Shown: in pieces, positions 3,486 through 59,521 of the stretch
Layout of the letters: every line of letters starts with the position of its first letter
Position numbering within the stretch: the first letter of the stretch is position 1
Assembly (NCBI GenBank): GCA_016183305.1
Contig: JACPEW010000020.1
Span: 4,247 to 68,246 of the forward strand
Length of the DNA stretch: 64,000 nucleotides
Reading direction: 5' to 3'
Source: Candidatus Daviesbacteria bacterium
GTDB lineage: Bacteria > Patescibacteriota > Microgenomatia > Daviesbacterales > UBA10151
Made by a program: the position numbers and the translations under genes
The notes under the pieces: model-generated
Databases searched by the model: none
The model's input: the letters and a program-made list of their open reading frames with translations, nothing else
What the model was told of the DNA's origin: nothing

Positions 3486-4133
3486 TTGGCTGAAGCTGAA
3501 ATTTGTTTTTCAGTAGTGGAACTAAACCAGCGGGCGGGCGCAGGGGAATTAGTAGCTGTTAGAGTAGCTAAGCTTATTAATAATGATCTTCAAACTAGGT
3601 TACTAGAACGGGAAGGAAAATATTCGTTTCAAGTAACAGCTGCTGGTAAATCAGGTTTATATAATGCTTTAGTTTTTGCTAAGGCGATTAGCTTAACAGA
3701 TGCCTTGCGTTTGATTAAAGAAGAATCCAAAGCAATTGGATTGGCTCAAAAAGCCTATTTCTCCTCTGCCGTTACCTCGGAAGATTTGTTATATACGCCT
3801 ATTCTAAGGGATTTCTTAAACAATATGCAGGACACTACTGCTGAAGTAGCAATTAAACAACCTAACTTGACTGTAGTAAACGGAAAAGGTAATAAGGTTT
3901 CTGGGGAGGCAGAAATCAGGCAAGAAATCATCGAGCAAGCTCTTAGGCCATACAACGAATTAGCAGTTAATGAGACATTAAGAAAGCTTAAAGCTTATCG
4001 GCCTTTTGAGGTTGGACTACAACCAAGAGGTAATAAAACATACCTGACCGGTGCAATGGCAGCAGGTACAATTTTAGCACTAATAGCTTGTGAGGCTTAT
4101 GGTAGATATCAGAGAAGAAATAAATTAAGTTAG
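3486..4133 (+). CDS. hypothetical C-terminally membrane-anchored protein (frame is open upstream to 3339)
   Basis: 215 aa from a TTG start with a C-terminal hydrophobic helix (GAMAAGTILALIACEAY). The same frame has no stop back to 3339, next to the pentanucleotide repeat. Confidence 0.5.
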   Translation: MAEAEICFSVVELNQRAGAGELVAVRVAKLINNDLQTRLLEREGKYSFQVTAAGKSGLYNALVFAKAISLTDALRLIKEESKAIGLAQKAYFSSAVTSEDLLYTPILRDFLNNMQDTTAEVAIKQPNLTVVNGKGNKVSGEAEIRQEIIEQALRPYNELAVNETLRKLKAYRPFEVGLQPRGNKTYLTGAMAAGTILALIACEAYGRYQRRNKLS

Positions 4134-4685
4134 TTTCACTTCAGTTAAAGTATTATGCTGATGGAAGCCATCAGAGGGGATTGATTCAAAAAGTTTTATA
4201 GAAGTAATCTGGATTGGCTCAAAGTTTTGGGCCATGATTTCTTCTAAACCTCTTTCCAGATTTCTATCAACTGCAAAGTCATTATTTAATTTGGCAATGG
4301 AAATATGTGGGACAAAGCGCCTTTCATCTATGGGTAAGTGTAAGTCTTCTAGCTCATCTTGAATTCTTTCATGGATAATAAAAAGCTTATCAATATCACC
4401 TTTTACCCCTACCCATAAAACCTTAGGTTGGTGAATGGTAGGGAAGCCATCAATATATGCAGGAGTCACCTCAAAAGAAGGAATATCAAAGGTTGCATCT
4501 TTAATAACTTGAGCTAAAGACTTTCTATAAATATCTGGTTGTTCCCCAATAAAGGCTAAAGTAAGGTGAACTTTGTCCAAAGCAGTAAGTTTTGCCTGAG
4601 GAATTAATGTATGCAAACTCTTTTGAATAGCTTGAAACTGTGCTAAATTCCCACTTGGTATTTCCAGGGCTATGAAGAACCTCAT
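4125..4685 (-). CDS. thpR: RNA 2',3'-cyclic phosphodiesterase (2H phosphoesterase, LigT/ThpR family)
   Basis: Two H-x-T/S motifs (HLTLAF and HISIAK) at the expected spacing. MRFFIALEIP N-terminus typical of the family. Confidence 0.8.
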   Translation of the reverse strand: MRFFIALEIPSGNLAQFQAIQKSLHTLIPQAKLTALDKVHLTLAFIGEQPDIYRKSLAQVIKDATFDIPSFEVTPAYIDGFPTIHQPKVLWVGVKGDIDKLFIIHERIQDELEDLHLPIDERRFVPHISIAKLNNDFAVDRNLERGLEEIMAQNFEPIQITSIKLFESIPSDGFHQHNTLTEVKLT

Positions 4686-4704
4686 TTAATTTTTATTTTA
4701 GAAA

Positions 4705-5001
4705 CTAGCTTGAGAGCCCGAAGGGTATCGGGGAGTATGGCTTTTGTAAACATACTACCTTTCTTTTATCTAATCCTAAAAAGTCAGCCCAAAAGTTGGC
4801 AGTTTTTGGTGAAAGGTCCCTGCTGGTTAAGAGTAAAGCCTTAATATCCTCTTTTTGGAAATTATCCGCTACCCATTTTAAAGCGCTGGTGTCACCGCGG
4901 TCAAGCAGGCGTTTGAGGATAAAAGACCGGGATTTTTCCAAGCTTACCTTATTAAAATCCACATCCCAAAAATATTGTTTAAATGATCTAGGAAGTTTCA
5001 T
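4705..5001 (-). CDS. conserved hypothetical protein
   Basis: 98-aa ORF (YFWDVDF...ANFWADFLGL); I cannot name the family with confidence. Confidence 0.4.
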   Translation of the reverse strand: MKLPRSFKQYFWDVDFNKVSLEKSRSFILKRLLDRGDTSALKWVADNFQKEDIKALLLTSRDLSPKTANFWADFLGLDKRKVVCLQKPYSPIPFGLSS

Positions 5002-5043
5002 GTCTTGACAATATTATACCAATATTTTATATTAATTGTGAAA

Positions 5044-5169
5044 ACTGAATATCAATCAAGAGCGGTAGATAGAGTATTGGCTCGTTAAGCTACCCAGCAA
5101 CCTAGCAAAACTAAGGTGCTACACCCAAACCTAACGTCGATTTACAATCGAACGAAAGGGAGGATTAGT
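5044..5169 (+). promoter_or_regulatory. candidate SAM-I-clan riboswitch aptamer
   Basis: AAGAG (5058..5062); P2 GGUAG/CUACC (5064..5068 / 5090..5094) enclosing GAG-UAUUGG-CUC; GCAACC (5097..5102); AAGGUGCUA (5113..5121). Possible pseudoknot UUGG (5077..5080) with CCAA (5125..5128). P4 hairpin tcgatt-tac-aatcga (5137..5151); GAAAG (5154..5158). The order matches the SAM-I consensus. Confidence 0.55.
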
Positions 5170-5197
5170 CCTGAAATAAATTTAAGGAAAAAAGTAT

Positions 5198-5224
5198 AAC
5201 CTCTCTTTCAAGAGAGGTTTTTTT
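5198..5224 (+). terminator. intrinsic terminator (riboswitch expression platform)
   Basis: aacctctct-ttca-agagaggtt followed by a T-run. The 5' arm cctctcttt (5200..5208) can alternatively pair with aaagggagg (5155..5163). Confidence 0.7.
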
Positions 5225-5242
5225 ATGGAAGGAGGTGAAAAT

Positions 5243-5617
5243 ATGGCAAGTAGAGAAAATGGAAATCCATATGGATTTTATGATGCATTATTAGATGAGG
5301 CTGCAACAGCTGTAGCCCGAGGCCGAAAGGCCACTGCACCTGAGGATTCAGGGCAAGTTGTTATTCCTGTTGCTGACATTAACAACGGACATGCACGTTT
5401 AGTATTAGGTAATTTTCCCTATGAGAAAAGATTTAGAGGTATTCCAGGTCGCAGCCTAACTGGAAGATCAACAATACAACCTGTGTTTGCTGTGGTAGAA
5501 GGCCGAGCAATTACGCCTATACCTTACGCAGAGAATGTTTTAGGACTGGGGGTGCCATTAGCTTCAGAGGTAGTTAGTCGTTTGGAAGCATTAAGGGAGA
5601 GGCAGGCTGCTATTTAA
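5243..5617 (+). CDS. hypothetical protein (GC-richer than flanks), downstream of the riboswitch candidate
   Basis: ggaggtg SD 6 nt before ATG 5243 (the track start 5225 sits in the terminator T-run). 124 aa with no family recognised. Confidence 0.6.
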   Translation: MASRENGNPYGFYDALLDEAATAVARGRKATAPEDSGQVVIPVADINNGHARLVLGNFPYEKRFRGIPGRSLTGRSTIQPVFAVVEGRAITPIPYAENVLGLGVPLASEVVSRLEALRERQAAI

Positions 5618-5635
5618 TGCCCAAAGATTTAATTT

Positions 5636-5669
5636 GAGCTGGGTGAGTCAACCCGCGCCCAGCTCTTTT
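5636..5669 (+). terminator. intrinsic terminator
   Basis: gagctggg ... cccagctc stem followed by tttta. Confidence 0.6.
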
Positions 5670-5755
5670 ATTGGACAAACGGGGAGAGTTGCTTAAGATA
5701 CTTGAAATCTCAATTATTTATGGCATACCGTAGGGATGAGGGGAGGTGATGGAAA

Positions 5756-6031
5756 ATGGTAAAACCAGAAAGCGGATCAGGTGAGATGACTATCAGAGAA
5801 GCTGGAAAACTGGGTGGTGAGGCTGTGGTTGAGACAAGAGGTCCGGAATTCTATAGAGAAATCGGCAGGAAAGGCGGTATAGCAGTTAGAGAAAGCAGGG
5901 GGTCTGAATTCTTTAAAGAAATTGGCAGAAAGGGTGGGGAGACTTTAAGAGATCAGGTGGGCCCGGGATATTATTCCAGAATAGGCCGGATGGGTGGCAC
6001 GTCAAAAAAAGGTCGGGAGCGGTTACATTAA
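5756..6031 (+). CDS. KGG-repeat general stress protein (YciG/GsiB-like)
   Basis: Three repeats of G-x-EF[YF]-x-EIGRKGG (EFYREIGRKGG, EFFKEIGRKGG, YYSRIGRMGG). Confidence 0.75.
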   Translation: MVKPESGSGEMTIREAGKLGGEAVVETRGPEFYREIGRKGGIAVRESRGSEFFKEIGRKGGETLRDQVGPGYYSRIGRMGGTSKKGRERLH

Positions 6032-6094
6032 GTTTTTGTAATTATGTCCGTGGCTGCTGCATAGAGTAGAGCTTCAGGATTTAACAAAGGATTT

Positions 6095-6160
6095 GTCATC
6101 TCGAGCGACTAGCGAGAGATCTTCCGAGGTTGGAAGATTCCTCGTTTCACTCGGAATGAC
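6095..6160. repeat. inverted pair of GTCAT-hairpin-ATCTTCC repeats
   Basis: gtcatctcgagcgactagcgagagatcttcc (6095..6125), gaggtt, ggaagattcctcgtttcactcggaatgac (6132..6160). Confidence 0.8.
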
Positions 6161-6235
6161 AGGTTTTGACAACTCCTGAACGATTACTGCATAGAATCTT
6201 GACTAATACATACAAAAACTATATAATTATATTGT

Positions 6236-6520
6236 ATGAATAGGGTTATTGTTCAGGTTCCTATGTCAAAAGAGTTAAAAGAAAAGGCTGAAACAGTATC
6301 TTCTGATATGGGTTTTTCTTCCTTGCAAGAGATCATTAGATTGTTTCTTAATAAGATAGCTGCTGGTGAAGTTAATGTGAGATTTGAAGAAACAGTTAAG
6401 CTTTCACCAAAAGCTGTTAAACGTTACGATAAAATGATTGATGAGATAGAATCCGGGAAAGTTAAGACTGAAGAGTTTACTGATACAGATAGTTTGATGA
6501 AGTATTTAAATGATAATTAG
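6236..6520 (+). CDS. RelB/DinJ-like antitoxin
   Basis: 94 aa, N-terminal ribbon-helix-helix-like VIVQVPMSKELKEKAETV..SSLQEIIRLFL. Overlaps the downstream toxin start. Confidence 0.6.
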   Translation: MNRVIVQVPMSKELKEKAETVSSDMGFSSLQEIIRLFLNKIAAGEVNVRFEETVKLSPKAVKRYDKMIDEIESGKVKTEEFTDTDSLMKYLNDN

Positions 6521-6776
6521 GTTAGGTAAGAGGTTTAAAAAAGCTTACAAAACTAGAATTGCTTCTAATAAAAGATTAATTCTACAAGCAAAAGAGAGAA
6601 TTGATTTGTTTAGATCTGATCCTCAAAATCCCATTTTAAAAGATCATAGATTGTCCGGAGCCAAACGGGAATTACGTGCATTTTCTATTACAGGGGATAT
6701 CCGTTTAGTTTATTAACCAGTTTCAGAAGACGAAGTTATATTCTTAGATATTGGATCACACAACCAGGTGTATTAA
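6510..6776 (+). pseudogene. RelE/YafQ-family toxin with in-frame TAA
   Basis: ...LKDHRLSGAKRELRAFSITGDIRLVY-TAA(6714..6716)-PVSEDEVIFLDIGSHNQVY-TAA(6774..6776). The family-typical C-terminal strand lies after the first stop. Confidence 0.65.
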
Positions 6777-6777
6777 C

Positions 6778-6818
6778 TTTAGGTTCCCTCATTCCAGGAG
6801 GAGAGGTATTTTTTCTGT
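6778..6818 (-). pseudogene. orphan duplicate of the ahcY 3' end (12 codons plus stop)
   Basis: 39/41 identical to 8244..8284. Encodes QKKYLSSWNEGT-stop; both differences are synonymous. Confidence 0.9.
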
Positions 6819-6966
6819 ATTATTTATACTCTTTTTGTTAAGCGTCTCTGTCTAAACGCGTTAGATTTGCCTGATAGACTTTGAAGTGTTTTTATTATAA
6901 ACTATAAGTCTGAAAATATACTTATGGTAGAAATACAACGGAGGCCTATTGATATAGATTTGGCAA

Positions 6967-7479
6967 TTGCAGATATCAGGTATCCTGTGGGGGGGAGAAT
7001 GTGATGCAGAAAAGCTTCAGGTTGAATGTTTAGCTTTGGCAGCAGCAGATCAAAGTTTAGCGTTACCAGCTCAAGCTGTGTTGGAGTTAAGCAGGATAAT
7101 GAGGGTGCCTGTTAGTTCGGTTCCTGTGTTTGCAGGATTCGGGCGATGGGTCTTAGATCCTGAGGCGAGCGATGAATTGGGTGATTACGCTGAAGCATTA
7201 AGTGGTGTGCAGGAATGGCTTATTGAAAAAAGGCAATTTGAAAAATTAAAAGCTCCCCGTCCTAATGTGTCTGTAAATAGAGGATCACGACATGTAAGGT
7301 GAGACTTTAAAGGAAAAGTATTAGCCCTAAGACAGGCTGGAGATTCTTGCGCTGAGGTTGCTGAACAATTGGAGCGTCCCTTGGGAGCTATCCAGGAAGC
7401 ATCACGATGGTTAATAAGACAAGGCTTGCTTGATAATAGATCTAACAATAATCCTCAGGTTCGAAGAGGTTTGTATTAA
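6967..7479 (+). pseudogene. GC-rich ORF with in-frame TGA; C-terminal helix-turn-helix
   Basis: 111 codons, TGA (7300..7302), then 58 in-frame codons DFKGKVLALRQAGDSCAEVAEQLERPLGAIQEASRWLIRQGLL... (HTH-like). TTG start is uncertain. Confidence 0.4.
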
Positions 7480-7502
7480 AATTCTGCCTCAGAGGAGTGA
7501 AG

Positions 7503-7922
7503 CTACACCTGGGGTTTGTGATATAACTTTTTCAAATCTTGGTCAGAAGTCAGGAATTCATCAGGCTGAAAGTTTTGGATTTGAGTTAAAATTATTGAAT
7601 CAGTAAATTTGATATTTGATTGCCTGAAGATATTTAAGGCCTGTTCTAGACTGGGTTTGTCTTCTGTCAGTACTCCTTCCAGAGCGAGTAATTCTTCAAG
7701 AAACTCAATGATTAAATCTTTTGGTTGTTTATAAAAAGACCATAAAACCCACTCTATTTCCGGGAAAACAATATCAGGAATAAAAATTCTGACCTTATTC
7801 AAAACACAATTGTTTATTAAATGTAATGCTTGAGTAAATCCAGGCTCTCTTTTAAGACGGTAGTCCAGTAAAACATTGGTATCAACGGCTGCGATTTTTG
7901 TCATATGGTCGTTTATCCTCAA
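7503..7922 (-). CDS. vapC: PIN-domain toxin (VapC-like)
   Basis: AAVDTNVLLDY N-terminal acidic motif, PIN-size protein, overlaps the upstream AbrB-type antitoxin. Confidence 0.75.
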   Translation of the reverse strand: MRINDHMTKIAAVDTNVLLDYRLKREPGFTQALHLINNCVLNKVRIFIPDIVFPEIEWVLWSFYKQPKDLIIEFLEELLALEGVLTEDKPSLEQALNIFRQSNIKFTDSIILTQIQNFQPDEFLTSDQDLKKLYHKPQV

Positions 7923-8169
7923 TCCATTTTTCTACAGCTATCTTTTCAGCAATTTCCCTGATTTGTTTTAAAGATTTTCCATCATCCAGATGAGCAAGGT
8001 CACCGGCAAACTGTAAAATATCTGATTTTTTCCTGGGTCTGCCAATAAAACCACCATCCAGGGTAGGGTAAATATCTATTTTAGCGCCTCTTTTTAAACC
8101 CAGAGTGTCCCGTACTGGTTTAGGAAGGGTTAATTGATTTTTGGTAGTTAGAGTTGTAGTAAAATTCAT
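7882..8169 (-). CDS. AbrB/MazE/SpoVT-family antitoxin
   Basis: TTKNQLTLPKPVRDTLGLKRGAKIDI looped-hinge-helix signature. Confidence 0.7.
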   Translation of the reverse strand: MNFTTTLTTKNQLTLPKPVRDTLGLKRGAKIDIYPTLDGGFIGRPRKKSDILQFAGDLAHLDDGKSLKQIREIAEKIAVEKWIEDKRPYDKNRSR

Positions 8170-8244
8170 ACACGCTAATTATATAAAAATCTTACTTTAT
8201 TGTCAAATGCCTTACTTTAAATTAAATATCCTTACTTAATAATT

Positions 8245-9498
8245 TTAAGTCCCCTCATTCCAGGAGGAGAGGTATTTTTTCTGTTCCTCTGTGAGGGTAT
8301 CAATTTTAGTTCCCAAAGATTCTAACTTTAATTTAGCAATCATATCATCTAGCTCTCGTGGAATAGTATAAACTCCTGGTTTTAATTTACCCTTATGTTG
8401 AATCAAATATTCTGCTGCTAAGGCTTGGTTAGCAAAAGACATGTCCATCACATCAGGCGGATGGCCTTCTGCTGAGACTAAATTAATTAACCTGCCCTCA
8501 CCTAAAACAAAAACCTTTTTCCCATCCTTTAAAGTAATTTCTTCCAAATTAGACCTTAAAACCCTTCTATTTTTAGCAGCTTTTACCAAGCCTTCATAAT
8601 CAAATTCCACATTAAAATGGCCGGTATTACAAACAACTGCCCCATCTTTTAATGAAGTGAGCATTTTTAAAGGCAATACATCTTTATTGCCAGTAGCTGT
8701 GCAAATAATATCTGCTGATTTAATAGCCTCCTCCATTGGCATTACCTCAAATCCATCCATAACAGCCTCCAAAGCTTTTAGAGGATCTACCTCAGTAACT
8801 ATTACTTGTGCTCCCATCCCTCTGGCTCTGCTAGCCAAACCTCTGCCACACCATCCATAACCTGCCACCACAAACTTTTTCCCAGCCAGTAATACATTAG
8901 TAGCCCTGATTATTCCATCAATAGTAGACTGGCCAGTGCCATACCTGTTATCAAACATATGTTTGGTGTTTGAGTCATTGACAGCAATCACTGGAATTTT
9001 TAAAGCCCCGTCTTTTAACATAGCTTTAAGCCTGATTACTCCAGTGGTAGTTTCCTCAGATGAGCCTAAGACTTCCTTTAACTGTGACTTTCTTTCTGTA
9101 TGCAAAAGAGTAACCAAATCTGCCCCATCATCCATAGTAATTTGGGGTTTAAAGTCTAAAACAGCATTTAAGTGTTTATAATAAGTTTCTTTATCCTCAT
9201 CTCTGATAGCAAAAGTAGGGATATCAAAATCTTCTGATAAGGAGGCTGCTACCTCATCCTGGGTAGAAAGGGGATTGGAGGCACATAATGCTAATTTAGC
9301 TCCAGCGGTTTTCAAAGCAATCATGAGATTTGCTGTTTCACTCGTTACATGAAGGCAAGCTCCAATGGTTATGTCTTTGAGGGGTTTTTCCTTAGCAAAA
9401 TGCTTCTCTAAAAGCTCTAGGACCTTCATTTGTGATCCAGCCCACTCAATTTTTAATTTCCCAGCTTTTGCTAAATTTTTATCTTTAATATCGCTCAT
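8245..9498 (-). CDS. ahcY: adenosylhomocysteinase
   Basis: 417 aa, full-length similarity pattern to SAH hydrolases (EWAGSQM, NPLSTQD, TTTGV, NDS-TKH-FDNRYG, GYGWCGRG NAD site). Confidence 0.9.
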   Translation of the reverse strand: MSDIKDKNLAKAGKLKIEWAGSQMKVLELLEKHFAKEKPLKDITIGACLHVTSETANLMIALKTAGAKLALCASNPLSTQDEVAASLSEDFDIPTFAIRDEDKETYYKHLNAVLDFKPQITMDDGADLVTLLHTERKSQLKEVLGSSEETTTGVIRLKAMLKDGALKIPVIAVNDSNTKHMFDNRYGTGQSTIDGIIRATNVLLAGKKFVVAGYGWCGRGLASRARGMGAQVIVTEVDPLKALEAVMDGFEVMPMEEAIKSADIICTATGNKDVLPLKMLTSLKDGAVVCNTGHFNVEFDYEGLVKAAKNRRVLRSNLEEITLKDGKKVFVLGEGRLINLVSAEGHPPDVMDMSFANQALAAEYLIQHKGKLKPGVYTIPRELDDMIAKLKLESLGTKIDTLTEEQKKYLSSWNEGT

Positions 9499-55502: not shown

Positions 55503-55590
55503 TTGTATAATACTTCCATAAAATTAGTAAAGCCGTCTAAATTAAATATTGGGAGTACTGTTGAAATTGTAGCTCTTTCTTTGCCAACAC
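55503..55590 (+). pseudogene. diverged fragment of the ldcA promoter and 5' end (copy 1)
   Basis: ttgtataat...ATA AAA TTA GTA AAG CCG TCT AAA TTA AAT ATT GGG AGT ACT GTT... aligns base-for-base with 58577..58664. ATG is replaced by ATA. Confidence 0.8.
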
Positions 55591-55595
55591 GAAAG

Positions 55596-55856
55596 CTAAT
55601 TGTATGTTTGGGTGGTACAGCGTTTGATATCAACAATTAAGATAACTTTAATAGTAAGGTCAATATCTAAGAAGATTCTGTAGTTGCCAGTTCTAATTCT
55701 GTGGCTAGTTTGATGAGGAGGTTTAAGCTTTTTAATATCTAAACTAAAAGGATTCTGCTTTATCTTTCCAAAAAAGGTCTTAATATACACTTGATCTTTT
55801 GACGGAAACCTCTTGAAGGACTTGACTGCATTTTTGGAAAAGTTTATCTGGAACAC
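55596..55856 (-). CDS. relE: RelE/ParE-family toxin
   Basis: ...HRIRTGNYRIFLDIDLTIKVILIVDIKRCTTQTY, the typical RelE/StbE C-terminal half. Confidence 0.7.
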   Translation of the reverse strand: MFQINFSKNAVKSFKRFPSKDQVYIKTFFGKIKQNPFSLDIKKLKPPHQTSHRIRTGNYRIFLDIDLTIKVILIVDIKRCTTQTYN

Positions 55857-55857
55857 T

Positions 55858-56160
55858 CTAGATGTCTAGTTCTTCCCATATTTTTTCTGCGGGGATGCCA
55901 CCATGCTTTTTTACATCAGCTAGAGCTTTATTTAATTTTTTGACAAACTTTGGATCATAGTCTGCCAGGTCATCTTTTAATTCCTTGATTCTTATATACG
56001 TTTCAATATCTACTAAAACCCCTTTTGGCTTGCCATTTTGAGTTATTACCATTTCTTTTTCTTTTGGTAATTTGCTTAAGATATCAGTGAGCTGCTTTCT
56101 TAGATCATCAGCACCGATAAATTTTTTGTCCAGTAATGAATACAGATTAATTGTTTGCAT
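55858..56160 (-). CDS. Phd/YefM-family antitoxin
   Basis: 100 aa, DDLRKQLTDILSKL.....VITQNGKPKGVLV; stop abuts the toxin start. Confidence 0.7.
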   Translation of the reverse strand: MQTINLYSLLDKKFIGADDLRKQLTDILSKLPKEKEMVITQNGKPKGVLVDIETYIRIKELKDDLADYDPKFVKKLNKALADVKKHGGIPAEKIWEELDI

Positions 56161-56243
56161 TAGGATATCATAACATATTCCTTAGGATTGTAAAGAATTA
56201 AATTTGCACAGGGCTTTAAATAGCGAGCGTCATATCTAATAAA

Positions 56244-56288
56244 GTGAAAATATCCCAAGAAGCATTTTTAAGTATCCTCAAGAGTTGA
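56244..56288 (+). pseudogene. diverged fragment of the lepA 3' end (copy 2)
   Basis: Encodes VKISQEAFLSILKS-stop versus VEIPQEAFLSILKS-stop of lepA (54727..54771). About 30/45 nt identical, with most differences synonymous. Confidence 0.8.
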
Positions 56289-56292
56289 CAAG

Positions 56293-56313
56293 TAATGTAT
56301 AATGTATAATGTA
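56293..56313 (+). repeat. (TAATGTA)x3 between a TTGACA box and the vapB start
   Basis: ttgaca(56285..56290)-ag-taatgta-taatgta-taatgta, with the last 'a' being the A of ATG 56313. Confidence 0.95.
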
Positions 56314-56594
56314 TGATTAGAAAACAGATATACCTGACACCCGAAATAGATAGAGAATTGAATATTCTTGCCAGACAGCAGGGTAAAAGCATGGCTGAAA
56401 TTGTCAGGGATATTCTAGAGAAAAGGCTAAAAATTAGCGAGAGACCAAAAAATACTGTTGAAGGTTTCTTAAATAGGATAACAGGAATTGGTAAGAAAGG
56501 CCCCCATGATTTATCTACAAACCTATTCAATTATCTGTATGGTGACAAGTCCCCTAATTATGGTAAACACAAGAAAATTACTCGTAGACGCTGA
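56313..56594 (+). CDS. vapB: ribbon-helix-helix (CopG/VapB-type) antitoxin
   Basis: MIRKQIYLTPEIDRELNILARQQGKSMAEIVRDILEKRL. Confidence 0.7.
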   Translation: MIRKQIYLTPEIDRELNILARQQGKSMAEIVRDILEKRLKISERPKNTVEGFLNRITGIGKKGPHDLSTNLFNYLYGDKSPNYGKHKKITRRR

Positions 56595-56982
56595 TGCTTT
56601 TGTGGCATTGGTTTGTCAAAATGATTCCAGTCACCAAAGGGCGGAAATTTTTCAAGAGCAAATTATCAAAGACAACTTTGAATTAATAGTTTCTGATCCA
56701 GCATTTGGAGAAGCAATAACAGTTATTAGTCAGAAAGAAGGTTTAAGGGTTGCTGTTAAATTTGCGGATGAGGTATTTGCCAGTCCACTAGAAATTATTG
56801 AGGTTGATCCGGCATTGCGCAAAGAGGGGTTGGATATTTTTAAAAAGCAAACTTCCAAAAATTCCAGGTTTACTGATTGTATTAATATGGCAATTATGAA
56901 AAAATTAGGCCTTAATACTATCTTCAGTTTTGATGTCCAATACAAAAAAAATAAATTTAAAAGATTTGGAGTAGATAAATGA
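56560..56982 (+). CDS. vapC: PIN-domain toxin (VapC-like)
   Basis: MVNTRKLLVDADAFVALV..., C-terminal FTDCINMAIM...IFSFD. Start chosen at ATG 56560. Confidence 0.7.
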   Translation: MVNTRKLLVDADAFVALVCQNDSSHQRAEIFQEQIIKDNFELIVSDPAFGEAITVISQKEGLRVAVKFADEVFASPLEIIEVDPALRKEGLDIFKKQTSKNSRFTDCINMAIMKKLGLNTIFSFDVQYKKNKFKRFGVDK

Positions 56983-57038
56983 AAGTTTTAAAGCCTTCTA
57001 AATTAAATATTGGGGATTACTATTGGGATTATGGCTTA
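56979..57038 (+). pseudogene. diverged, frameshifted fragment of the ldcA 5' end (copy 2)
   Basis: ATG AAA GTT TTA AAG CCT TCT AAA TTA AAT ATT GGG GAT t ACT ATT GGG ATT ATG GCT aligns with 58592..58650. Confidence 0.8.
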
Positions 57039-57040
57039 AT

Positions 57041-57301
57041 CTAGTGATAAGTTTGGGTGGTGCGACGCTCTATTTCTACTATTTCAATTATCTTAATTTC
57101 AAAGTCAATTCTCAGAAAGATTCTGTAATCTCCGACCCTCAATCTATGCGTGGCTTGGTAATAAGATGATAATTTTCTAAGATCCAGATCAAACGGACTA
57201 AGGCTTAATCTATCTGATGCTTTTTTAATTTTAACTTGGTAATCAATAGGGATTTTCTTTAAAGACTTAAGAGCTTTTTTAGAAAAGGTAATTTGATACA
57301 C
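57041..57301 (-). CDS. relE: RelE/ParE-family toxin (second copy)
   Basis: ...HRLRVGDYRIFLRIDFEIKIIEIVEIERRTTQTY. GTG 57301 mirrors the start position of copy 1. Confidence 0.7.
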   Translation of the reverse strand: MYQITFSKKALKSLKKIPIDYQVKIKKASDRLSLSPFDLDLRKLSSYYQATHRLRVGDYRIFLRIDFEIKIIEIVEIERRTTQTYH

Positions 57302-57303
57302 TT

Positions 57304-57606
57304 TTAAATACCTAGTTGTTTCCAAACTTTCTCTGCAGGAATACCGCCATGCTTTTTAATTTCCTCAACAGCCTTGTTAACTTTTTTAATAAGTTTAGGA
57401 TCAAAATCCGCTATTTGTTCATACAATTCTTCTATTTCAAGATAAGATTTAATGTCTAAAAGTACCCCTTTTGGCTTGCCATTTTGAGTTATTACTATTT
57501 CTTTTTCTTTTGGTAATTTGCTTAAGATATCAGTGAGCTGCTTTCTTAGATCATCAGCACCGATAAATTTTTTGTCCAGTAATGAATACAAATTAATTGT
57601 TTGCAT
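57304..57606 (-). CDS. Phd/YefM-family antitoxin (second copy)
   Basis: The first 36 residues are identical to 55858..56160; the C-terminal half is diverged. Confidence 0.7.
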   Translation of the reverse strand: MQTINLYSLLDKKFIGADDLRKQLTDILSKLPKEKEIVITQNGKPKGVLLDIKSYLEIEELYEQIADFDPKLIKKVNKAVEEIKKHGGIPAEKVWKQLGI

Positions 57607-57829
57607 TAGGATATCATAACATATTCCTTAGGATTGTAAAGAATTAAATTTGCACAGGGCTTTAAACGGGCGTTATAATCACTAGCAGAAAACCCCGCTT
57701 TCTTGCAATTTGTAAAACAAATTGGGTGCGTTAAGCAGGGATGAATGCTTTTGTGATTACAGTCTTCCGTGGGGTAGGTGGTAGAGTGGTAGATCTGGAT
57801 AGGGTTTTCTGTAGTTTCTTGTAAACTTT

Positions 57830-57859
57830 CAAAGAAAACCGCGGGCTTTCAGCCCGCGG
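57830..57859 (-). terminator. GC-rich hairpin with a T-tract on the minus strand
   Basis: ccgcgggct-ttc-agcccgcgg (57839..57859). The minus strand continues ttttctttg. Confidence 0.45.
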
Positions 57860-57904
57860 AAGTTTATAGTTAAAAAAAGAAAAAGATTTAAAAAATAGAA
57901 ATCC

Positions 57905-57948
57905 CCCAGAAGCACTCTTGAGTATTCTTAAATCGTAAAAGGTAGAAG
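57905..57948 (+). pseudogene. diverged, frameshifted fragment of the lepA 3' end (copy 3)
   Basis: atagaaatcccccagaagcactcttgagtattcttaaatcgtaa. Restoring one A gives IEIPQEALLSILKS-stop. Confidence 0.75.
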
Positions 57949-57995
57949 CTTACAAAATAATTGAATTACTGGTTAACTTATGAGACAGTTAAAAT

Positions 57996-58523
57996 ATGAA
58001 AGAAAGAGGTTTTACTTCAATATTATTTATATTCATCATATTGGTAATCTCAGCAGGGATTATTAGTGGGGCTTTTTACATTAAACAATCTAATCTTTCC
58101 AACAAGCAACTTAATAAGCAGCCTGAGGCTTATGTTAACACAACATCGATTGATCAACCTGCGCAACCTTCTTTAGAATCTTCACCGATTCAGTCTGCAA
58201 AACTAGACCAAGCACCAAAATCTGCTGTATCAAACAATGAAGCTGCTAGGTTTACTGGAATGATTACAGAGACTAACAATAGTTGTTGGGTAGATGGAGT
58301 GTGTAGTGTTAAAATTGATAGTTCATGGGTTGAAGTGGAAAGAGGTGGTTTAAGGCCTCCGAATATGATGGGAGAACCTGGCGGACAATTAATTGGAATA
58401 TCTTTTAGTTCTGATACTGAAAAGTATATTGGCCAAAAAGCAGAATTCTACGGCGCCAAAAAAGATGATGGAAGCTTTACAATTTATGGTAACTCTAATT
58501 ACTATCTAAAGTTAGTTAACTAA
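57996..58523 (+). CDS. hypothetical anchored protein (slot-3 cargo)
   Basis: 175 aa, N-terminal TM helix, Q/S/P-rich linker. Confidence 0.45.
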   Translation: MKERGFTSILFIFIILVISAGIISGAFYIKQSNLSNKQLNKQPEAYVNTTSIDQPAQPSLESSPIQSAKLDQAPKSAVSNNEAARFTGMITETNNSCWVDGVCSVKIDSSWVEVERGGLRPPNMMGEPGGQLIGISFSSDTEKYIGQKAEFYGAKKDDGSFTIYGNSNYYLKLVN

Positions 58524-58591
58524 TAATTTGATAAAACAATCATTATTAGTTGTTGTTATATCAACGAAATACTACATTGTATAATGCTTAA

Positions 58592-59521
58592 ATGCAGATT
58601 TTGAGACCTTCTAAATTAAATATTGGGGATACTGTGGGGATTGTGGCTTCTTCTTTGCCAGTTCTGCCTGTTTTTAAAGAAAGTTATGAAAGGGGCAAAA
58701 AAATACTTGCAGACTTAGGATTTAAGATCAAAGAAGGGGAAACTATTGGCAAAATCAGGTGGTGGGCTGCCGGAACACCAAAAGAGGTGGCAGCAGATAT
58801 AAATAAGATGTTTGCTGATAAAAGCATAAAAGCTATTATGGCTCAAACCGGTGGATACTCTGCTTTTTCTGTTTTGGAATATTTAGACTATGAACTTGTA
58901 ACTGCTAACCCAAAACCTTTTATTGGTATGAGCGATGTAACCAATTATTTAATGGCTTTTTTTACCAAATGCAGTATGGTTGGATTCCATATGGATGATG
59001 TTTTACACCTCAATAAAGAACTTTTCTTAAGATTTTTAACAAAAACTAAAGTACCGGGTAAAATTAAACCTTTAACTGAATGGGATGAGTGGAAAAAAGG
59101 CCAAACAGGAGGACATTTAATGGGTGGAAACTTGCATTTATTTTCTGGTTTAATAGGAACTGAATATTTTCCTAAGCCAGAATTTTTTGATGGGGCAATA
59201 CTGTTTTGGGAAGAAGTTGGGGAACCTTTACACAGCATTGCCAGGTTTTTAACCCAGCTAAAATATGCTGGAATTTTAGACAGGATTACCGGTATGCTGA
59301 TCGGTAAAATTACCCATATTAAACCAGCCAGGGAAAAAGAAGTAATAGAACCAACAGCAAAAGAGCTGGTTTTGGATATTTTAAAAGATTATAAATTCCC
59401 TGTTATGGCTAATATGGATTTTGGCCATTTTACAGTTAATATTCCAATGCCTATAGGAACAAAAGTTTCCTTTGATACTTCCAAATCAGAATTAAACTTT
59501 TTAGAATCAGCTGTAGCCTAA
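58592..59521 (+). CDS. ldcA: LD-carboxypeptidase (peptidase S66, LdcA/MccF family)
   Basis: LNIGDTVGIVASS, GGYSA, GMSDVT (nucleophile Ser), DFGH (His) pattern. Confidence 0.75.
   Translation: MQILRPSKLNIGDTVGIVASSLPVLPVFKESYERGKKILADLGFKIKEGETIGKIRWWAAGTPKEVAADINKMFADKSIKAIMAQTGGYSAFSVLEYLDYELVTANPKPFIGMSDVTNYLMAFFTKCSMVGFHMDDVLHLNKELFLRFLTKTKVPGKIKPLTEWDEWKKGQTGGHLMGGNLHLFSGLIGTEYFPKPEFFDGAILFWEEVGEPLHSIARFLTQLKYAGILDRITGMLIGKITHIKPAREKEVIEPTAKELVLDILKDYKFPVMANMDFGHFTVNIPMPIGTKVSFDTSKSELNFLESAVA

Follow-up and report, generated by a model that had tools for sequence, protein, structure and literature searches.

Small integrase-less cassettes, dominated by toxin-antitoxin (TA) genes, accrete at the 3' end of ahcY, the gene of S-adenosyl-L-homocysteine (SAH) hydrolase, in Candidatus Daviesbacteria; such accretion at the end of a protein gene appears to be new for a bacterium of the candidate phyla radiation (CPR). 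The locus was analysed in a stretch of 64,000 nt (the window, called WIN where lineages are compared) from assembly GCA_016183305.1, contig JACPEW010000020.1, positions 4,247-68,246 of the forward strand. Coordinates are window positions, L-numbers designate contigs or loci of relatives and P-numbers homologous proteins. The insert under study, 6819-8243, had been regarded in a sequence-only reading as a minimal element devoid of integrase. Minimal and integrase-less it is, but it does not stand alone: it is the youngest unit of a hotspot, not a one-off, and the same architecture recurs in the window at ldcA. We read the locus as the site of recurrent, position-specific insertion with replacement of the gene end, resembling the accretion of integrase-less cis-mobilizable elements (CIMEs).

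The genomes of CPR bacteria are tiny and streamlined, and very little is known of how they acquire genes. The ahcY locus provides a comparative record that includes an empty site, single insertions, stacked arrays and a cassette moving between distant genomes, and that documents the entry and accumulation of toxin-antitoxin and defence modules. Literature searches returned no account of this hotspot or of gene-end-framed TA arrays in CPR bacteria, and we know of no earlier report of ahcY as an attachment (att) site.

Two copies of the ahcY 3' end frame the insert

The insert lies between two direct repeats, 6771-6818 and 8237-8284, identical at 44 of 48 positions (92%). The pair first noticed, 6778-6818 and 8244-8284 with 39/41 identities, is confirmed and thus only part of the duplication. 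The repeats share an exact core of 33 nt (6786-6818 and 8252-8284), which occurs twice in the 64 kb and not at all in 100 shuffles, contrary to what would be expected of a genome-wide repeat unrelated to ahcY. Along the minus strand, the two copies have the sequence CAG AAA AAA TAC CTC TCC TCC TGG AAT GAG GG(G/A) AC(T/C) TAA and encode QKKYLSSWNEGT followed by a stop codon. As the only mismatches in the coding part are GGG/GGA and ACT/ACC, the coding differences are synonymous, as had been proposed; the two other mismatches lie just past the stop.

The right copy is continuous with the open reading frame (ORF) of the AdoHcyase protein, whereas the left copy has no gene body; the former is indeed the functional end of ahcY and the latter an orphan. 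The stop complement of the orphan is at 6779-6781, 2 nt from the yafQ stop of the neighbouring cassette. The interior of the insert bears no similarity to ahcY beyond the 48 nt. The AhcY protein of the window is 100% identical to an NCBI protein of Ca. Daviesbacteria (P0001).

Logan assemblies of several sequencing runs (L175-L177) match the left junction and the interior at 100% identity; these assemblies being independent, the structure is not an artefact of binning or assembly of a metagenome-assembled genome (MAG). The Logan contigs that carry the cargo end within the 33-nt core, so that their coverage stops short of the circle and empty-site junctions. Exact look-ups of the window AhcY and VapC returned no record. 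The exact look-up of RelB gave the same allele only and therefore no population-level empty site.

An empty site and recurrent insertion in relatives

The backbone pfkB-ahcY-ligT, with a variable interval between the last two genes, is conserved across relatives, and the whole of 4686-8244 is therefore variable, accreted material. In L166, whose AhcY is 84% identical, ligT follows 9 nt past the ahcY stop and the interval 4686..6235 is absent. The check for an empty site suggested by the sequence-only reading was thus positive, and the 1.4 kb cannot be an ancestral segment without empty-site alleles; the allele that had been predicted, with ahcY abutting relBE, was not found; the real backbone has ligT in that place. 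In 11 other lineages the ahcY-ligT interval ranges from 0 to 7 kb and its content differs.

A profile of the ahcY end (nhmmer; last 48 nt plus 6 nt of ahcY from 11 Daviesbacteria lineages, L184 being scanned later) recovers eight orphan ahcY ends in 7 of 12 Daviesbacteria lineages, with E values from 6e-12 to 0.04. Two are in L161 and one each in the window (E 6e-12), L081, L002, L001, L170-173 and L184. All eight are in direct orientation and downstream of ahcY; no comparable profile match occurs upstream of ahcY or on the other strand in the scanned loci. Among 156 more distant ahcY loci (<=70% identity), no second copy with <=9 mismatches in 36 was detected on either strand.

The cargo differs at every orphan and consists mostly of TA pairs. 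It comprises AbrB-PIN and a pseudogene in the window, FitA-RHH and PIN in L002, RelB and YafQ on the opposite strand in L081, AbrB-PIN and Phd-PIN in L001, one GNAT acetyltransferase gene in L170, genes for a 604-aa protein and a KGG protein together with a truncated Cys/Met-PLP gene in L161, and a PIN gene in L184. As the DNA between ahcY and the orphan is different each time, each cargo/orphan junction represents an independent event. Counted back from the end of the stop codon, the inner edges of all orphans nevertheless fall at 33-51 nt, a zone of about 20 nt, and the outer edges are at most 8 nt past it; no longer ahcY fragment was seen at these loci. To judge from these sequences, unrelated cargo has entered the same ahcY-end position repeatedly, in seven lineages. 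The empty site and this recurrence bear out the earlier claim of insertion into the ahcY 3' end with supply of a replacement end; the other half of that claim, the action of a site-specific recombinase, is a matter of interpretation that is weighed below.

Some orphans retain traces of their former surroundings, the native neighbours of ahcY being methionine-cycle genes. In L170 (11814-11874), the antisense of the orphan encodes the last 17 residues of a convergent homocysteine S-methyltransferase gene; the 3' ends of this gene and of ahcY originally overlapped, so that this orphan continues to code for protein. A convergent MetE-like gene has its stop 4-6 nt from the orphan in L002 and L081.

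Layered arrays and horizontal movement of a cassette

The closest relative, L161 (AhcY 88%), carries two stacked orphans. Its distal orphan shares a TGA stop and a CAAAAG flank with the native end of L003 and is followed by the same pair of 89- and 96-aa TA genes that directly follows ahcY in L003. The two orphans enclose an RHH-PIN unit that is a homologue (60% aa) of the sole cargo of L002, and a newer cargo adjoins ahcY. The distal orphan is also the more degenerate one (12 versus 43 bits). This layering indicates that insertion takes place at the gene-proximal copy and that older ends are pushed outward. Furthermore, the middle copy of L161 reads TGG AAT, like the L002 end beside the same RHH-PIN unit, while TGG CAT is found in the older orphan and in the present end. 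This pattern gives a small hint that each incoming unit may bring its own end instead of copying the resident one.

The vapBC cassette of the window has a counterpart in L184, a Logan contig. The two are similar for VapB (83% aa), VapC (87% aa) and vapBC as a whole (84% nt), and in L184 the same promoter/operator stands before vapBC, as does an ahcY-end copy, now an orphan behind the PIN gene. The backbone is far more divergent (LigT 54% aa and 67% nt; homologue of the window's ORF130 34%), and the sequence downstream of vapC is different, with a pseudogene and the orphan in the window and ORF119 in L184. As vapBC is at 84% nt but ligT at 67%, the segment made of the ahcY-end copy, the promoter and vapBC must have moved horizontally. 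By this comparison, the genomes between which the vapBC unit moved are those of distant Daviesbacteria, and its position is the same in each.

Content of the insert

From ahcY outward, the insert carries the vapBC promoter, vapB and vapC. The promoter is flanked by AAGTAAGG repeats, which alignment shows to be conserved in L184. The vapC ORF reaches 7922 if an upstream TTG is used, and overlaps vapB by 41 nt (ORFs 7882..8169 and 7503..7922), or by 23 nt with the ATG start. VapC has 70 homologues at 45-95% identity, many of them from Daviesbacteria. By its gene order, the cargo is a predicted type II VapBC module: a small antitoxin gene that overlaps a PIN toxin gene and has its own promoter.

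The rest of the insert is occupied by a GC-richer (about 44%) sequence that had been taken for a helix-turn-helix (HTH) ORF. It is a decayed pseudogene, the relic of a protein of ~217 aa with a C-terminal HTH. Compared with P0192 (217 aa), its reading frame shifts near 6987-6996, is interrupted by an in-frame TGA at 7300-7302 and lacks ~25 aa internally. P0192 is its only homologue (E 6e-8, full HMMER search of 1.84 billion representatives); a word-based homologue search with the HTH ORF gave none, and Pfam and PHROG searches with the HTH protein gave no family. The single-sequence AlphaFold model of P0192 is poor (pLDDT 45). Most other units contain only TA genes, with stop codons abutting the repeats; the youngest unit of the window keeps this pseudogene.

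The VapC/AbrB pair and the lack of a recombinase, both noted from the sequence, are upheld by Pfam. Indeed, Pfam on the cargo ORFs and a motif scan found no recombinase domain in the insert, just PIN, AbrB/MazE and the HTH pseudogene, and the repeat search found no inverted repeats at its ends, 6819 and 8243. The wider search for a recombinase that had been recommended, made with motif patterns and Pfam on 40 ORFs within the 64 kb, was negative as well.

Proposed insertion by a recombinase acting in trans

The locus bears the classical signature of conservative recombination in a gene terminus with a replacement end. The incoming DNA would bring along a copy of the terminal ~40-50 bp of ahcY and recombine reciprocally with the chromosome inside this segment. 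The incoming copy would complete ahcY (8237-8284) and the former end, still joined to its old downstream neighbours, would be displaced to the far side as the orphan (6771-6818). Repeated rounds would stack the cassettes, the newest adjoining ahcY and the older orphans decaying outward. Since no cargo unit encodes a recombinase, the reaction would be catalysed in trans, by a site-specific recombinase whose gene would lie elsewhere, either in the chromosome or in an intact element related to the cassettes. The cassettes could then be CIME-like remnants, reduced by genome streamlining to the addictive TA genes and the att copies. The chance that such a trans-acting recombinase is at work at the ahcY end is, in our estimation, close to even, on the lower side. 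It is favoured by the clustering of the junctions, the array order, the transfer across a flank divergence of 33% and the presence of a decaying non-TA gene.

Various observations weigh against it. No integrase or resolvase is encoded in the eight cargo units or the 40 window ORFs (Pfam), nor found by motif scans, and no intact integrase-bearing element was seen at ahcY in 12 lineages. Viral contigs contain no attP-like copy (two ahcY-end patterns gave 0 and 6 hits, the latter being chance hits in GC-rich DNA), and scans of these contigs with P0192 and the L161 604-aa protein found nothing. The cargoes share neither a backbone nor a conserved sequence beside the repeats and are too compact for arm-type sites, and the inner edges are scattered over ~18 nt instead of coinciding. 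The array at ldcA and a 47-nt repeat pair in L002 (both described below) would require several specificities. Some cargo looks chromosomal: the L161 junction holds a fragment of a Cys/Met-PLP gene, and the KGG gene, distal in the window, has a proximal position in L161. Lastly, ahcY itself is mosaic: WIN and L161 are 63-75% identical (nt) over the first ~300 nt and 82-93% over the remainder, and the 5' part of the L161 gene (79-1335) is closest to L081. Homologous exchange is therefore at work in the core gene that flanks the hotspot.

If a trans-acting or host recombinase, or short-homology recombination following the uptake of DNA, proves to be responsible, the ahcY units would represent a minimal form of mobile cassette with a predictable landing site, and part of the high TA load of CPR genomes would be explained. 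The ahcY-end profile is a ready probe for the missing recombinase and for dating insertions.

Alternative explanations

A serious rival of the trans-acting recombinase is exchange of cassettes by RecA over short homologies, without any dedicated recombinase, after uptake of DNA from related Daviesbacteria; we regard it as possible, if rather unlikely. The donor DNA would comprise the 3' part of ahcY, the cargo and perhaps the orphan, with a RecA crossover in ahcY on one side and, on the other, a short-homology crossover between the donor orphan and the true ahcY end of the recipient. Alternatively, a circle with ~40 bp of ahcY could integrate by a Campbell mechanism, or one side could be joined illegitimately, as in homology-facilitated illegitimate recombination (HFIR), a process established in competent bacteria (PMC3240628). 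The orphan would be the recipient's former end, and its inner edge would be inherited and later trimmed by deletions. Such an exchange would account for the lack of recombinases in cargo units, window ORFs and motif scans, for the compact cargo devoid of backbone or arm sequences, for the mosaic ahcY of WIN and L161, for the recurrence of the architecture at the unrelated terminus of ldcA and of a further repeat pair in L002, for the end of the proximal L161 cargo in a truncated Cys/Met-PLP gene right at the orphan, and for the change in position of the KGG gene between genomes. It fits poorly with the eight independent junctions, which all lie 33-51 nt before the stop without any long fragment, despite the 1.25 kb available. 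Moreover, 40-50 bp is at or under the usual minimum for efficient RecA exchange, vapBC has crossed between genomes whose ligT is at 67% nt, a divergence that strongly suppresses homologous recombination, and the first duplication for each cargo type is left unexplained.

A broader proposal, which we consider doubtful, is that Daviesbacteria, and perhaps CPR bacteria generally, capture cassettes at gene termini with no need for an integrase encoded by the element. Core genes would offer ~40-80 bp at one of their ends as a landing pad, as ahcY does at its 3' end and ldcA at its 5' end. With every insertion the gene end would be re-created and the old one left behind, yielding ordered TA/defence arrays with the newest unit by the gene. 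The process would rely on a recombinase of the host or, once DNA has been taken up, on recombination over short homologies, and would have an integron-like or CRISPR-array-like function.

Duplication of the target itself is improbable. A transposase-like or casposase/Cas1-like integrase would make staggered cuts ~45 nt apart at the ahcY stop and insert any DNA; gap repair would then duplicate the target, giving copies that are identical at birth and diverge later. Unrelated cargo framed by the same segment without carrying any homology would be expected, as would the perfect 47-nt pair in L002, and the order of the units, newest proximal and decaying distal, recalls the duplication of repeats in CRISPR arrays. 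The synonymous-only differences are compatible with later divergence (estimated P~0.14, 0/4 at constrained positions); the window pair differs at 4 of 48 positions, which may reflect either age or origin. However, the cargo ends carry no terminal inverted repeats, Pfam detects no transposase or Cas1 gene, and the inner edges vary by up to 18 nt between events (-33 to -51), apparently without a fixed length. The TGG AAT of the middle L161 copy, against TGG CAT in the others, fits an imported end better than serial copying, and the ahcY-end copy, along with the vapBC promoter, is common to WIN and L184. We know of no transposon family that makes duplications of 40-85 bp.

Capture in the manner of integrons, through attC sites, or of Xer/dif elements, by the host XerCD as in integrative mobile elements exploiting Xer (IMEX), is largely refuted and very improbable. 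Ordered arrays of compact, often TA-encoding and integrase-less cassettes do resemble integron and IMEX arrays, and Xer-type tyrosine recombinases are encoded in Daviesbacteria (L185). The attC idea was rejected on folding, as six repeat copies fold no better than shuffles (DNA folding, z -0.8 to +0.3); there is no intI or attI, and no tyrosine recombinase among the 40 window ORFs or the fetched ahcY-adjacent loci. The dif/Xer idea was rejected on GC skew, which is positive across the window with no terminus switch at 7-8 kb; nor was a dif-like 11-6-11 motif found by eye. The second array, in addition, uses a different sequence.

That no insertion took place, the arrangement being ancestral, a local tandem duplication followed by decay, or an assembly artefact, is hardly tenable: homologous vapBC genes are found in the corresponding position of L184, and repeats can give rise to chimeric MAG contigs, but L166 has an empty site, the cargo is different in every lineage, WIN and L184 resemble each other far more in vapBC than in the backbone, the interior is unlike ahcY outside the 48 nt, and independent Logan contigs span the left junction.

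Comparison with known systems

CIMEs are known to accrete in tandem at the 3' ends of protein genes, as in the case of the integrative and conjugative element (ICE) ICESt1 and the CIME at fda of Streptococcus thermophilus (PMC5704250). Like CIMEs, the ahcY units are devoid of integration and transfer genes, and new units would enter the att copy that holds the gene end, leading to tandem structures. A repeat (44/48 in the window) of which one copy completes ahcY is present here and likewise in six other lineages, and Pfam on the cargo ORFs and the motif scan find the units to lack integrase, excision and transfer genes of their own. Unlike in the case of CIMEs, no related integrase-bearing ICE or integrative and mobilizable element (IME) is known; none using ahcY was found in the 12 lineages or in viral contigs. 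The units are also only 0.6-3 kb long and usually consist of one TA operon without any remnant backbone; as possible remnants of a larger element, there is one decaying HTH gene in the youngest unit and otherwise no shared backbone. Furthermore, the host is a CPR bacterium without a known conjugation partner.

The ssrA islands of Dehalococcoides are arranged in tandem, split by direct repeats of the 3' end, and some of them, read as CIMEs, lack integration genes (PMC3146451). The ahcY locus is similarly a strain-variable tandem hotspot downstream of a single-copy essential gene, with direct repeats of its 3' end. However, 16 of the Dehalococcoides islands share a conserved serine-recombinase module (DsiB), a 20-bp repeat of an RNA gene and a precise insertion point (PMC3146451), whereas the ahcY units have no such module and their repeat is 35-50 nt of coding sequence with a variable inner edge. 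The dusA islands integrate into the 5' end of a protein gene by means of a dedicated tyrosine integrase encoded beside the att site (PMC4482086); the ldcA array resembles them in its 5'-end target but has no integrase.

Chromosomal integrons share with the ahcY locus ordered, compact, promoter-bearing TA cassettes, the newest being proximal, with no recombinase inside the cassettes; unlike integrons, the locus has no intI or attI, and its repeats are copies of the target gene end without significant folding instead of structured attC sites. As in HFIR (PMC3240628), an anchor in ahcY on one side could import foreign DNA without any enzyme, which fits the mosaic ahcY and the missing integrase. 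HFIR junctions, in contrast, scatter and usually delete recipient DNA, while those at ahcY are clustered within 18 nt and accompanied by a duplication of the gene end.

A second array at ldcA and other repeat pairs

Another array, built in the same way, is found in the window at the 5' end of ldcA, the gene of an LD-carboxypeptidase (Table 1). The ldcA promoter and the first ~65-70 nt of the gene are duplicated twice upstream, and the orphans separate TA cassettes; the PIN stop codon overlaps the ATG of orphan B. As this array, in the same window, uses an unrelated repeat, a single pair of att site and integrase is not the whole story.

Table 1. Features of the ahcY and ldcA regions (window positions)
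Feature	Position	Strand	Basis or remark
ligT (2'-5' RNA ligase family), conserved far boundary of the hotspot	4125..4685	-	Pfam; syntenic in all Daviesbacteria loci
DUF6922 (AbiEi-like) orphan antitoxin, adjoining ligT	4705..5001	-	Pfam
SAM-riboswitch-like leader and ORF130	5050..5617	+	sub-threshold Rfam match
KGG stress protein	5756..6031	+	Pfam
Long hairpin, ~105 nt, near-perfect, extended, between KGG gene and relB promoter	6032-6200
Promoter of relB-yafQ	6199-6227		11/12
Older neighbouring cassette, relB and yafQ/relE	6236..6776	+	Pfam RelB E 3e-3, YafQ_toxin E 8e-9
relB, antitoxin	6236..6520	+
yafQ/relE, toxin	6510..6776	+
Left repeat, orphan ahcY 3' end (displaced former end)	6771..6818	-	repeat search; nhmmer ahcY-end profile E 5.7e-12
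HTH pseudogene	6924..7479	+	tblastn in two frames
vapC toxin, PIN domain, 133 aa from ATG	7503..7904	-	Pfam PIN E 5e-11
vapB antitoxin, AbrB/MazE fold, 95 aa	7882..8169	-	Pfam MazE_antitoxin E 9e-5
vapBC promoter, perfect sigma-70 consensus TTGACA-17-TATAAT	8178..8206	-	promoter scan, 12/12
Right repeat, functional ahcY 3' end (last 12 codons, stop and 8 nt past stop)	8237..8284	-	repeat search; exact core 8252-8284
ahcY, SAH hydrolase, target gene, 417 aa	8245..9498	-	Pfam AdoHcyase / AdoHcyase_NAD E 1e-58 / 5e-55
Second array, ldcA 5' end	55503..58660	+	repeat search, alignment, Pfam
ldcA orphan A	55503-55586		75%, start codon lost
ParE/Phd cassette	55596..56160	-
RHH/PIN cassette	56313..56982	+
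ldcA orphan B	56973-57040		86%, 1-nt indel
ParE/Phd-2 cassette	57041..57606	-
Real copy of the ldcA repeat	58577-58660
ldcA, LD-carboxypeptidase	58592..59521	+

The two Phd/ParE cassettes of this array share 203 nt at 99% identity (56018-56220 and 57464-57666), which cover the 5' part of the antitoxin gene and the promoter and look like the result of a recent gene conversion between array units; the repeat search extends the similarity of the antitoxin genes to 300 nt at 81% (55859-56158 and 57305-57604). The array also includes a non-coding stretch of ~390 nt (57607-57995) with a GC-rich hairpin about 57838-57868, CCGCGGGCTTTCAGCCCGCGG; its Rfam matches are at chance level only.

In L002, an insertion between pfkB and ahcY is framed by a perfect 47-nt direct repeat (2926-2972 and 4870-4916), which encloses two genes, one for a 487-aa Schlafen/AlbA_2-HATPase 'helicase-like' protein and the other an ORF for an 88-aa membrane protein. 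On the minus strand the repeat encodes a C-terminal protein fragment, KIAVKVIDIFGNDTT, without a gene body, which we take to resemble the C-terminal end of a DNA methyltransferase. The pair may correspond to a third insertion framed by a gene-end copy. A perfect 30-nt repeat of L001 (5142-5171 and 6849-6878) was set aside as a probable scaffolding artefact, as a run of N adjoins one copy; the 511-aa ORF inside it is presumably an IS66-like transposase, from an eye reading of its sequence.

Other features of the ahcY-ligT interval

Beyond the orphan, the older neighbouring cassette carries relB and yafQ. The latter is broken by an in-frame TAA (6714-6716), across which the Pfam YafQ model aligns (3-87 of 88). 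The YafQ toxin thus appears to be inactivated, and its relB partner and promoter look intact. The hairpin between the KGG gene and the relB promoter is predicted to fold at -56.5 kcal/mol (z -4.3; 0/200 shuffles equally stable); it is present in a single copy, with no Rfam match and no second copy in the window or the fetched loci. More generally, no tRNA, tmRNA or Rfam family reaches the gathering score in the window. Next to ligT, the DUF6922 gene is an orphan antitoxin gene left after loss of its toxin gene: in L161 (7313-8199) it is followed by an AbiEii toxin gene, which is missing from the window.

The leader that precedes ORF130 (130 aa, no family; 5225..5617) extends over 5050-5225 on the plus strand and matches the full-length S-adenosylmethionine (SAM) riboswitch model RF00162 (SAM-I) below threshold (28.9 bits versus a gathering score of 44.4; E 1.3e-4). 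A perfect terminator hairpin (5195-5225) comes next, and then the start of ORF130. An additional candidate orphan in L184 (1616-1640) was rejected, since it corresponds to the terminator hairpin of the same leader, conserved in the window. Indeed, L184 has kept the leader (71% nt) in front of the ORF119 homologue. A leader of SAM-sensing type, by this sub-threshold match, thus adjoins the region of the SAH hydrolase gene.

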